From the NCBI GenBank assembly GCA_000004985.1, contig GG738847.1: DNA of 64,000 nucleotides. One strand, 5' to 3'. Both the position numbers and the translations under genes were made by a program. Source of the DNA: Naegleria gruberi (Eukaryota). Below the pieces are notes generated by a model, which saw nothing but the letters and a program-made list of their open reading frames with translations, was not told the origin of the DNA and searched no databases. Below are positions 44,911-48,275 of the stretch, one piece after another. The first letter of the stretch is position 1; each line of letters opens with the position of its first letter.

Positions 44911-46458
44911 ATGCTCTCTCAACTTGAAACCCTTCCAAACGAAATTATTCTCCACATTCTTCACTACATTGATGACAATGAATGCTTCCATTCAACATGT
45001 TTCACTAAAAAGTATTGGCTACTAACTATTTGGCCATACAGAAAGGAGAAACTGGCCATCAATTCTTATTCCGACCTTGACAGATATTTGCAAAATGTTA
45101 GTAATAATACCAATAACAAGGTATCATCAGCAAAGAATTCAACTATCGGATCAGTTGTAGGAGCCATCAATGCATCATCAAGAGCAACCCACATTGAAGA
45201 AAAGAAAATTTCTACTAAAATTCTATATGATTATTTCGATAGATTTACTCACTTGAAGGAAATTTCTCTTGTAAATTGTGGATTAAACGATTCAAGTCTT
45301 GAAAAACTTTGTTCCATCAATAAGAGAGGATTAATATCATTGAACATTTCTAAGAACAAGAATTTAACGTGGGCCAATACACAAAAGTGTATCATGCTTT
45401 GTGAGAATATCAAGAGTTTGGATATTTCATACAATTTTCAAGCTAGCACACCAAATCAAAATACACAAAATACTTGGATAGAAAGTTTGACATTACCAAT
45501 GTCACTAGAACGATTGAACATTTCTGGATTCCTATCGGAAATTCCTGATTTTGAATCACTTTTTAAACTAATCAAGAAATTTTCAAAGGAAAATCAAGAA
45601 ACCGAGCATCCAATAATCAAAGTATTCACAGCAAATCACTTGACCGAATTTTCACTCCTCAAACCAGAATATTTGAAAACTTTGCGAGAATTATCTAAAA
45701 AGACAATGATAGAAATGTATAACCATTGCTTTATTTTCCTCAAGTCATTGACATTTGTGGAGATTTATACATCACTGGGATTTTATCCTGCCACTGAATT
45801 GATTAACGAATGTATCATTAAGGGTCACACTCGTTCATTGGAATTATTGGCCTCGATTGACTTTCCATTTAATGAAATTTCATTGGGCGTACTGGAGGAA
45901 GCCATCCTTGCTGGACATTCATCTATTATTTCTAAACTCAGAGTTTTGGGATTTACTCGTTTCGACGATATTAGTGATGACCTCTTGGATAAGTTAGTTA
46001 CAAAGGGAGATGCAGCTGCCATTACAGAACTTCGTTCATGCAATGTACCTAGAAGAAAGTGGGATCTCATCACTTTATCAGCAGTTGAAACAGCTGTTAG
46101 AAATGGTAATAAGGATGTACTCGAACACATTAGAATGCTCAACCTGGGAGATTTACTGAAACAAGTTGCTATTGAACATGTGGAATATGCATTGGAACGT
46201 GGTCACTCTGGTATTCTCAAACAATTAACCAGTTGCAATTATCAATACCTTAATGATATTAATGCACAAATTCTGGCAAACATTGTAGCCAAATCTGTTA
46301 CTTTTGAAATTGTCCTAAGAAATGCAGGATACAAAAATCTGACAGAAATCAAGTCACTCATCAAACAACAAACCAACACCAAACCAGAGAAGAAAGCAAA
46401 GAAGGAATCCAAGAAGGAAAAGAAGAAGACAACCACAACAGCAACAAGCTCCAAATAA
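44911..46458 (+). CDS. F-box protein with LRR-like and ankyrin-like repeats and a lysine-rich C-terminus.
   Basis: N-terminal F-box consensus LPNEIILHILHYID. Later ANK-like units (AVRNGNKDVLEHI; ALERGHSGILKQL). Confidence 0.45.
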   Translation: MLSQLETLPNEIILHILHYIDDNECFHSTCFTKKYWLLTIWPYRKEKLAINSYSDLDRYLQNVSNNTNNKVSSAKNSTIGSVVGAINASSRATHIEEKKISTKILYDYFDRFTHLKEISLVNCGLNDSSLEKLCSINKRGLISLNISKNKNLTWANTQKCIMLCENIKSLDISYNFQASTPNQNTQNTWIESLTLPMSLERLNISGFLSEIPDFESLFKLIKKFSKENQETEHPIIKVFTANHLTEFSLLKPEYLKTLRELSKKTMIEMYNHCFIFLKSLTFVEIYTSLGFYPATELINECIIKGHTRSLELLASIDFPFNEISLGVLEEAILAGHSSIISKLRVLGFTRFDDISDDLLDKLVTKGDAAAITELRSCNVPRRKWDLITLSAVETAVRNGNKDVLEHIRMLNLGDLLKQVAIEHVEYALERGHSGILKQLTSCNYQYLNDINAQILANIVAKSVTFEIVLRNAGYKNLTEIKSLIKQQTNTKPEKKAKKESKKEKKKTTTTATSSK

Positions 46459-46462
46459 AAAA

Positions 46463-47695
46463 ATGGAATCACTGATTTGCCTTCCACCTTTTGAATCTTT
46501 CATCGGAAAAACAATTTCATCTCTGCCAACTCCATGTCTGGTGATTGATCAAGTTGTTTATTATGAAAATTTAAAGAATTTGAAAGAGTATGTTGATGGA
46601 AAAGTAGCAATACGACCACACTTTAAAGCACACAAGGTAAGTTTGATGTTTAATTACAATATTAAATTATATTGTTAGACTCCAGCAATAGCTTCCGATC
46701 AAATTTTAATTGGAGGAGGATGTGGAGTTTGCTGTCAGAAAGTGAGTGAAGCAGTAGAGGCCATCTCCACAGTGGATGATGTTTTAATTTCGAATCAAGT
46801 TGTGAGTGTGGAGAAATTAAAGTTGATCATTAGGATGAATAATTTGCAAAACAAGACAGTTTCACTTTGCGTTGATAATTGTGGGGTGATTGAATTGTTG
46901 GATAAATTGATGGATGGTGAATCAAAGAAATTAAATCTTGTTGTGGAATATAATGTGGGACAGAATAGGTGTGGAGTTGAGAGTCAGGATCAAGTATTGG
47001 ACCTTGTCAAAATTATTAATGAGAGTAGACATTTGAATTTTAAAGGCATTCAATGCTATAATGGCTCTAATCAACACATCAAGTCATATGAAGAAAGAAA
47101 GTTGGCAACTCAAAAAGTTGTGGAAAAGACAAGGAGTTTGGTTGACTTTTTGGAAGAGAAGGGAATTAAAGTTGAGTATGTAACTGGTGGAGGTACTGGC
47201 ACTTTTGAATTTGAAATGAATTCTGGAGTTTTCACAGAAATTCAACCAGGTTCATGGCTATTTGGTGATGCTGATTATGGATCTATCATGACCAAAAACA
47301 ACAAACCAGTCTTGGAAGATGATTCACACTTTTACTCACAGTCATTGTACATTCTCTCCACTGTTGTGAGCAAGACAGAAGGTAAAAGGGTAGTATTGGA
47401 TGCAGGACTCAAAGCCTCAACTATTGATAGTGGCAATCCAATTCTGAAAGAACCTCAAATGAGAGTACTCAAATATAATTTTGGTGGTGATGAACATGGC
47501 ATTCTTTCTGTGAATGAGAATGAAAAATCCAAGGACTTGATTGATCAAATTAATGTTGGAGATCAAATTCAATTAATCCCAGGACATGTGGATCCAACTT
47601 TTAATATGTACGATTCAATAATATTCTATAACAGTAGAGAAAATAATTTAGTGACACGAGTTGAAAAAATCAAAGCACGTGGACCAGGTATTTAA
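46463..47695 (+). CDS. D-serine dehydratase-like protein (fold-type III PLP enzyme, alanine-racemase N-terminal domain family, DSD1 type). Two exons: 46463..46636 and 46679..47695.
   Basis: Intron of 42 nt (GTAAGT...TGTTAG), phase 0. The motif RPHFKAHK with the PLP-lysine context is characteristic of DSD1/D-threo-3-hydroxyaspartate dehydratase-type enzymes. A C-terminal beta domain is present. The stop codon overlaps the RidA stop on the opposite strand. Confidence 0.65.
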
Positions 47696-48153
47696 TTCTT
47701 GTAAGCAACAACTTCCATTCCAATAAGAGCATTCTTTGGTAATTGAGAAACTGCAAAACAACCTCTTGCAGGTTTGTTATCAGTGAAATATTCTACATAA
47801 ATTTTGTTTACAGCATCAAAGTTATCCATACTAGTCAAGAGAATTGTTGTTTTCAATACTTGTGACAAGCTTGATCCACAATCTTCAAGTACATTTGTAA
47901 TGTTTTTCAAGGTTTGATGAGTTTGAGCATAAACATCACCATGTTCTTCGCTTGTTGCCAGTTTTCCTATGGCTGGATCAAGTCCAAATTGTCCACTCAA
48001 GAAAATCAAACGATCGTCAAAGATTGAAGCATGTGAGTATGGTCCGAGAGCAGCTAGAAGAAGTTGAATTAATTGAAATAAAAAATTTAAATACATACCA
48101 GGAGCTTTATCAGAGTTCAAGAGTGTGTGATTGATCTTGTTGTTATCAGACAT
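47692..48153 (-). CDS. RIDA: RidA / YjgF / UK114-family reactive enamine-imine deaminase. Two exons: 48099..48153 and 47692..48053, with a 45-nt GTATGT...TCTAG intron at 48054..48098.
   Basis: Conserved RidA blocks (GPYSHASIF...FLSGQ...TTILLTSMDNFDAVNKIY...ARGCFAVSQLPKNALIGMEVVAY). 139 aa after splicing. Its 3' end overlaps the 3' end of the D-serine-dehydratase-like gene by 4 nt. Confidence 0.8.
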   Translation of the reverse strand: MSDNNKINHTLLNSDKAPGMYLNFLFQLIQLLLAALGPYSHASIFDDRLIFLSGQFGLDPAIGKLATSEEHGDVYAQTHQTLKNITNVLEDCGSSLSQVLKTTILLTSMDNFDAVNKIYVEYFTDNKPARGCFAVSQLPKNALIGMEVVAYKN

Positions 48154-48202: not shown

Positions 48203-48275
48203 CTCCCCCTGGTGGGCTCGAACCACCGACCTGCAGATTAACAGTCTGACGCTCTACCGACTGAGCTAAGGGGGA
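48203..48275 (-). tRNA. tRNA-Asn, anticodon GTT.
   Basis: The reverse complement gives TCCCCCT acceptor, TAGCTCAGTCGGTAGAGC D-arm, anticodon loop CTGTTAA, T-arm GGTGGTTCGAGCCCACC, and 3' acceptor AGGGGGA that pairs perfectly. T-runs follow downstream in the transcribed sense. Confidence 0.85.

Follow-up and report, generated by a model that had tools for sequence, protein, structure and literature searches.

Two genes of Naegleria gruberi, one for a putative aldolase-type enzyme dependent on PLP and one for a RidA protein, are arranged tail-to-tail, and their coding sequences (CDSs) end on one and the same TTAA. This arrangement is very probably incidental, with two unrelated metabolic genes of the housekeeping type adjoining each other in a nuclear genome that is very compact. 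An earlier, sequence-only reading of the window, i.e. the whole 64-kb stretch of DNA that was analysed, had interpreted the pair as a D-serine dehydratase and its intermediate deaminase, which would form a coherent module, possibly co-regulated via antisense 3′-UTRs. We compared both proteins with known structures and families, searched for the pair in other genomes, and determined the spacing of the other convergent genes in the window.

Gene models and the shared TTAA stop

The two genes and their elements are as follows.

46463–47695, + strand: aldolase-like gene (fold-type-III PLP enzyme, DSD1 family), two exons, one intron, 396 aa
46463–46636, + strand: aldolase-like exon 1 (from the ORF and splice sites), residues 1–58, its 3′ end encoding the PLP-lysine motif RPHFKAHK
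46637–46678, + strand: aldolase-like intron, 42 nt, GT..AG, directly after RPHFKAHK
46679–47695, + strand: aldolase-like exon 2, residues 59–396 and the TAA, with R155, Y185, H191, Q247, H361, and D363
47692–47695, both strands: shared stop TTAA, with the + strand TAA at 47693–47695 and the − strand TAA as the reverse complement of 47692–47694
48153–47692, − strand: RidA gene, two exons, one intron, 138 aa
48153–48099, − strand: RidA exon 1, MSDNNKINHTLLNSDKAP and the first base of the split Ala19 codon
48098–48054, − strand: RidA intron, 45 nt, GT..AG, in frame and free of stops
48053–47692, − strand: RidA exon 2, residues 19–138 and the stop, with the PAR arginine R114 and the ME(V) glutamate

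The exon models of the sequence-only reading, including both stops, were borne out by comparison with homologues. For the aldolase-like gene, tblastn revealed an exon break after HFKAHK also in the orthologues of N. lovaniensis, N. fowleri, and Willaertia, and the N-termini of the orthologues align with that of the N. gruberi protein (..FIGK..LPTPCL.ID). The C-terminus ARGPGI* recurs as ARGPGI in the orthologues of the same three species, compared with ARGPGL in those of Acrasis and a metagenomic relative. The RidA intron is in frame and contains no stop codon, so that a plain ORF scan runs straight through it; its removal restores the motif DKAPxAxGPYS, as found in the relatives P0122 and P0123 and in UK114. 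The RidA C-terminus AYKN* matches those of relatives, namely AYKK* in the closest one, and AYQK.

Across the junction, bases 47686–47701 are AGGTATTTAATTCTTG. The last codons of the aldolase-like CDS on the + strand are GGT ATT TAA, and those of the RidA CDS on the − strand are TAC AAG AAT TAA. Each CDS ends within 47692–47695, and thus one TTAA serves for both stop codons; the convergent, tail-to-tail overlap of the two CDSs is 4 nt. An identical junction with an identical overlap is present in contig L008 of an independently assembled metagenome, which has 99.5% identity over 2013 nt. The shared palindromic stop, which the sequence-only reading had proposed, is thereby confirmed as real.

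The upstream gene on the + strand, at 44911–46458, ends in AAATAAAAA, and the ATG of the aldolase-like gene follows 4 nt further on, so that the tandem packing is equally extreme. The GC content of the window is 34%, and the introns are of the spliceosomal type (GT..AG).

Family assignment of the two proteins

The PLP enzyme contains the Pfam domains PF01168 (the Ala_racemase_N barrel) and PF14031 (a C-terminal beta domain), both with scores above the gathering cutoffs. The latter is named “putative serine dehydratase domain”, which accounts for the dehydratase label in the sequence-only reading, and members of the aldolase clade are frequently auto-annotated as “D-serine dehydratase-like” after this domain. 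The structural matches do not uphold that label. The best PDB matches are D-threonine aldolases (4v15, E = 1e-69; 7yqa, 8e-66; 7dib, 2e-62) and a 3-hydroxy-D-aspartate aldolase (6qkb, 2e-68), compared with values of 2e-9 for the D-threo-3-hydroxyaspartate dehydratase (3wqg and 3wqc) and 2e-8 for the chicken D-serine dehydratase (DSD; 3anu), the latter match covering the N-terminal domain alone. The domain architecture PF01168 plus PF14031 is common to the PLP enzyme, the enzyme of Alcaligenes xylosoxidans (AxDTA, 4V15), Chlamydomonas 7YQA, and BhcC (6QKB), and the full-length identity to AxDTA and BhcC is about 40%. In contrast to the genes of AxDTA and BhcC, the N. gruberi gene is eukaryotic, contains an intron, and has orthologues across the Heterolobosea.

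For AxDTA, the roles of the active site residues have been described: PLP is bound to Lys59, stacked against Tyr187, and contacted at its pyridine nitrogen by Gln249; the carboxylate is held by Arg157, His193 acts as the base, and the Mn2+ is held by His347 and Asp349 (PMC4401734). In the dehydratase, the metal site consists of His and Cys, and His193 is lacking (PMC4401734). Counted along the structure alignment, Lys59, Arg157, Tyr187, His193, Gln249, His347, and Asp349 of AxDTA correspond to K58, R155, Y185, H191, Q247, H361, and D363 of the PLP enzyme, respectively, i.e. every mechanism residue named for AxDTA is kept. All seven are invariant in an alignment of 20 sequences comprising eukaryotic and bacterial relatives. 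The H-x-D of the metal site (H361, D363) lies in the motif GHVDPT. Yeast Dsd1p and chicken DSD (3ANU) share the superfamily, the Pfam domains, and the position of the metal site with the PLP enzyme; however, they are remote matches, their ligands are His/Cys instead of His/Asp, and they have no base of the His193 type.

These comparisons show that the enzyme falls into the clade of D-threonine/beta-hydroxy-D-amino-acid aldolases, as a predicted metal-dependent enzyme of fold-type III. From the same residues, we infer aldolase rather than dehydratase chemistry. The expected reaction would be a retro-aldol cleavage yielding glycine and an aldehyde or glyoxylate, and in view of the aldolase signature 2-aminoacrylate is unlikely to be the main product. 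Side activities are possible among members of the fold-type-III superfamily.

Two more specific identities were considered. A zinc-dependent D-serine dehydratase is not supported, in view of the His/Asp ligands (His361 and Asp363 in place of His/Cys), the presence of the His base (His191), and E-values of 2e-9 to 2e-8 for the dehydratases versus 1e-69 for the best aldolase. The enzyme can also not be named BhcC, because its score with the NCBIfam equivalog model NF045642, 303.1 bits, is far under the cutoff of 690.

The identity of the second protein, as proposed in the sequence-only reading, held up. Its sequence agrees fully (100% identity) with that of N. gruberi XP_002682546.1. It matches PF01042 with an E-value of 1.5e-32 (Pfam), and passes the NCBIfam subfamily model TIGR00004 with 135.9 bits (cutoff 106.25). 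Its best PDB matches are UK114/RidA deaminases, aligned end to end (UK114 6tcc, E = 4e-29), and its PAR arginine, the counterpart of the catalytic Arg105 of Salmonella RidA, is aligned with those of UK114 and 1xrg. The comparisons show a canonical protein of the RidA/UK114 type, a predicted enamine/imine deaminase. With mammalian UK114 it shares about 45% identity, and the conserved motifs GPYS and PAR(x)C are kept; relative to the UK114/YjgF family, a short N-terminal extension and the one intron are the differences, and neither is notable. An obvious targeting peptide is absent, unlike in the relative P0123.

Conservation of the pairing

The sequence-only reading had named synteny in related genomes as a check of the proposed module, and a lack of synteny in every relative as a refutation; the latter is the outcome for the loci compared below. 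We retrieved the orthologous loci of the PLP enzyme from N. lovaniensis, N. fowleri, and Willaertia magna (L001, L002, and L003) with 6-kb flanks, together with those of a metagenomic heterolobosean (L007) and, with 8-kb flanks, of Acrasis kona (L089) and Phytophthora sojae (L090). The PLP enzyme orthologues of the first three species are 60%, 58%, and 53% identical to the N. gruberi protein, respectively. A search with tblastn and with a 121-sequence RidA HMM on six-frame ORFs yielded no Rid homologue within 6–8 kb of the aldolase orthologue at any of the six eukaryotic loci; as a positive control, the HMM on the window scored 5.6e-47. The convergent gene that follows downstream in N. lovaniensis and N. 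fowleri, at a distance of about 50 nt, encodes an unrelated protein of 538 aa.

The reverse comparison gave the same result. None of three contigs (L004, L005, and L006) with the two closest RidA relatives, P0122 (60% identity) and P0123 (56%), has an aldolase gene beside the RidA gene, and the adjoining genes are those of RabGAP, FolB, or enoyl-CoA hydratase. Among 80 bacterial loci, representing the nearest prokaryotic relatives of the PLP enzyme (35–41% identity), a Rid ORF within 5 kb was found at a single one (L045; phmmer followed by the 121-sequence HMM). The pair is kept only in L008, a second N. gruberi-like strain, and this retention is uninformative because of the 99.5% identity.

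Naegleria species have diverged so far that not one flanking gene is common to the window and the orthologous heterolobosean loci, and therefore the lost adjacency argues only weakly against a functional link confined to this lineage. At the level of the loci compared, the absence of the pair elsewhere shows that the pairing is not ancient; it does not show a lack of function.

The proposal of a coherent two-gene module has to be weighed against these results. It supposes a PLP enzyme that acts as a D-serine/D-threonine dehydratase and releases 2-aminoacrylate or 2-aminocrotonate, a RidA that is its dedicated quencher, and a selected adjacency of the two genes. The name of PF14031, the membership of RidA in a bona fide enamine/imine deaminase subfamily, and the retention in L008 (with the reservation just given) speak in its favour, as does a bacterial precedent: a chitin-oxidation cluster contains OngC, a D-amino-acid deaminase of fold-type III, and OngD, an essential gene of the RidA family (PMC9537276). 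As in the N. gruberi pair, the gene of a fold-type-III PLP enzyme adjoins a RidA-family gene. However, OngC belongs to a separate clade distant from the D-threonine aldolases, and its operon is co-directional and co-induced, whereas in N. gruberi the two genes converge, their pairing is not conserved, and the enzyme is of the aldolase type. The convergent orientation excludes a common promoter, and RidA targets freely diffusing intermediates, so its gene need not adjoin that of the producer. Fold-type-III enzymes are known targets of damage by 2-aminoacrylate (PMC9127364), and their protection from it is independent of gene adjacency. On the best available evidence, the enzyme would be an aldolase with its His base and His/Asp metal site, not a dehydratase, and the biochemical case for a module fails. 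Together with the scarcity of the adjacency, this makes the module unlikely.

Spacing and 3′ ends of convergent genes

Convergent ORFs form eight pairs in the 64-kb window, with stop-to-stop gaps of 15, 10, 13, 171, 30, −4, 26, and 211 nt. Six of the eight, the base rate from one window, thus lie between −4 and 30 nt, and the overlap of −4 is the extreme end of a continuous distribution of tight convergent spacing. Most of the predicted ORFs in the tight neighbouring pairs are confirmed as real genes: at the five junctions, seven of the 10 ORFs have a Pfam domain, six of them above the gathering cutoff (BTB, RNase T2, PI3/PI4-kinase, Erv1/Alr, C2HC zinc finger, and LMBR1), and the seventh with a Cpn60/TCP-1 match of 20.4 bits, below the cutoff of 34.3. 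The PI3/PI4-kinase has a FATC domain at its exact C-terminus, and the stop of the Erv1 gene is 30 nt away.

Direct-RNA sequencing has revealed a median 3′-UTR length of 39 nt for N. gruberi, with an AAUAAA signal 15–20 nt before the cleavage site and “dual-use” stop codons overlapping the poly(A) signal in about 11–13% of the genes (PMC11529991). With gaps of 10–30 nt versus a median 3′-UTR of 39 nt, convergent transcripts should usually overlap, and 3′ transcript overlap is probably the norm for convergent genes in this genome. In several neighbouring convergent pairs AATAAA sits in the short gap; with the signal inside so small a gap, cleavage would occur within the CDS of the partner. For the aldolase-like/RidA pair, an overlap of the mRNAs at their 3′ ends, as proposed in the sequence-only reading, follows from the CDS overlap if both genes are transcribed.

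The RidA strand has one candidate signal at the junction:

47691–47696, − strand: AUUAAA hexamer overlapping the RidA stop (AAG AAT TAA ATA)

Judged from its position, this hexamer may have a “dual use”, in the stop codon and as the poly(A) signal. It is followed, about 20–35 nt downstream and inside the aldolase-like CDS, by a U-rich tract. On the + strand, only UGUA (+5) and AAUAAG (+27) were found past the aldolase-like stop, and AWUAAA is absent from the 300 nt that follow it. The 3′-end positions of both genes are predictions. Short intergenic spacing, overlap of stop codons and poly(A) signals, and 3′ ends in or near the neighbouring gene have been described for compact protist genomes with ultrashort 3′-UTRs and overlapping convergent genes, i.e. 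those of N. gruberi and Giardia (PMC11529991), and are seen or, for the 3′ ends, predicted here as well. In comparison with this pattern, the overlap of the CDSs themselves by 4 nt is a local extreme.

The overlap could alternatively be a pair-specific cis-NAT device, in which double-stranded RNA or transcriptional interference couples or anti-couples both genes. With CDSs overlapping by 4 nt, any 3′-UTR would be antisense to a coding exon of the partner; the AUUAAA at the RidA stop fits this view, and, with no canonical AWUAAA for 300 nt, the aldolase-like transcript may extend far into RidA. However, this geometry is shared by the majority of convergent pairs in the window, nothing marks out the aldolase-like/RidA pair, and the arrangement is not conserved. 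Because 3′ overlap is probably the default in this genome, it provides no evidence of pair-specific antisense regulation, and the co-regulation by 3′-UTR antisense pairing that had been suggested has a very low probability. The same low probability applies to a combination of both ideas, in which the N. gruberi enzyme, although of the aldolase type, would have a significant beta-elimination activity on D-serine/D-threonine, and the recent juxtaposition with RidA would be adaptive, with antisense 3′ ends coupling the enamine producer to the detoxifier. If true, the pair would represent, in a eukaryote and in convergent orientation, a counterpart of the deaminase-RidA clusters of bacteria (OngC/OngD, for example), and a eukaryotic case of a RidA coupled in cis to its producer enzyme.

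In the case of an incidental juxtaposition, the shared TTAA would be the far end of a genome-wide tendency and no designed feature. Convergent genes of N. gruberi would typically be 10–30 nt apart from stop to stop, and the two CDSs would have drifted until a single TTAA ended each of them. The 3′-UTR and the poly(A) site of each gene would then lie inside the coding exon of the partner, which probably holds for the majority of convergent pairs in this genome.

The two public gene models, which are located on one scaffold of 941,567 bp, differ from those presented here. The aldolase-like protein clusters with XP_002682333.1 (“partial”, 284 aa), which starts at Met111 and is therefore missing the PLP lysine along with the other residues of the first 110; it breaks off with ...ARGP, two codons too early and directly before it would reach the RidA model. 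The start of XP_002682546.1 is an ATG within the 45-nt RidA intron. These defects probably stem from clipping at the overlap. The differences could also point to the overlap itself as an artefact of a faulty gene model or assembly, which is scarcely credible, as both C-termini align with those of orthologues residue by residue up to the stop, the junction is the same in the independently assembled metagenome, and the public truncation resembles clipping that avoids overlapping models.

A useful by-product of the analysis is two corrected gene models, as both public N. gruberi models need repair. In addition, the label “D-serine dehydratase-like”, taken from the name of a Pfam domain, misleads functional reasoning about this enzyme. 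The biological weight of the pair is small: it adds one more case of extremely tight gene packing, with termination space shared between convergent genes, in a free-living protist.

Packing of the aldolase-like gene and other convergent pairs

The aldolase-like gene, which encodes a fold-type-III PLP enzyme, closely follows another gene on the same strand:

44911-46458, + strand: upstream gene, 515 aa

The 3′ end of this gene reads ...AAA TAA AAA, so that an AAUAAA overlaps its stop codon, and the aldolase-like ATG lies at 46463, just 4 nt past the end of the upstream gene (junction at window 46454-46465). The poly(A) site of the upstream gene should therefore fall within the aldolase-like CDS. 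As judged from this arrangement, the promoter and 5′-UTR of the aldolase-like gene would have to reside inside the upstream CDS.

In the 64-kb window, the stop codons of five more convergent ORF pairs are 10-30 nt apart:

409/425, 5613/5624, 11080/11094, 42473/42504 and 51923/51950: further convergent pairs

In several of these five pairs, the AATAAA of one gene is located in the gap. Overlap of convergent transcripts seems to be the rule in the N. gruberi genome.

Public gene models and RidA relatives

The public N. gruberi models of both genes at 46463-48153 are defective. The aldolase-like model (XP_002682333.1, "partial", 284 aa) lacks residues 1-110, including PLP-Lys58, as well as the last two codons, and the RidA model (XP_002682546.1) starts at an ATG within the intron and lacks exon 1.

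For the window RidA (47692-48153, - strand), two metagenomic, apparently eukaryotic relatives rank first (56-60%), followed by bacteria as the best named matches (Spiroplasma, Clostridium, 50-53%). N. fowleri, N. lovaniensis and Willaertia contribute no annotated RidA orthologue to the top matches. The results suggest that RidA is either patchily distributed or present as unannotated small genes in other Naegleria genomes.

tRNA genes and the metagenome contig

The window contains two tRNA genes:

48203-48275, - strand: tRNA-Asn(GTT), on the same strand as RidA and 49 nt upstream of its start codon
19593-19666, - strand: tRNA-Arg(TCT)

The metagenome contig L008 (99.5% identical) follows the window as far as 48278 and diverges completely directly past tRNA-Asn(GTT) (L008 2014-2326). 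This may mean either that the strain is rearranged at the tRNA or that the assembly is chimeric.

The Acrasis kona locus

In Acrasis, the aldolase-like gene (L089 8001-9370) is followed, 3.7 kb further downstream, by an aminotransferase gene:

L089 13045-14341: PF12897 "Asp_aminotransf" aminotransferase gene

No PF12897-type neighbour is present beside the aldolase-like gene in the N. gruberi window. Because PF12897 may be the family of BhcA, the Acrasis neighbour hints at a beta-hydroxyaspartate-cycle-like context for the aldolase-like enzyme family in Heterolobosea.
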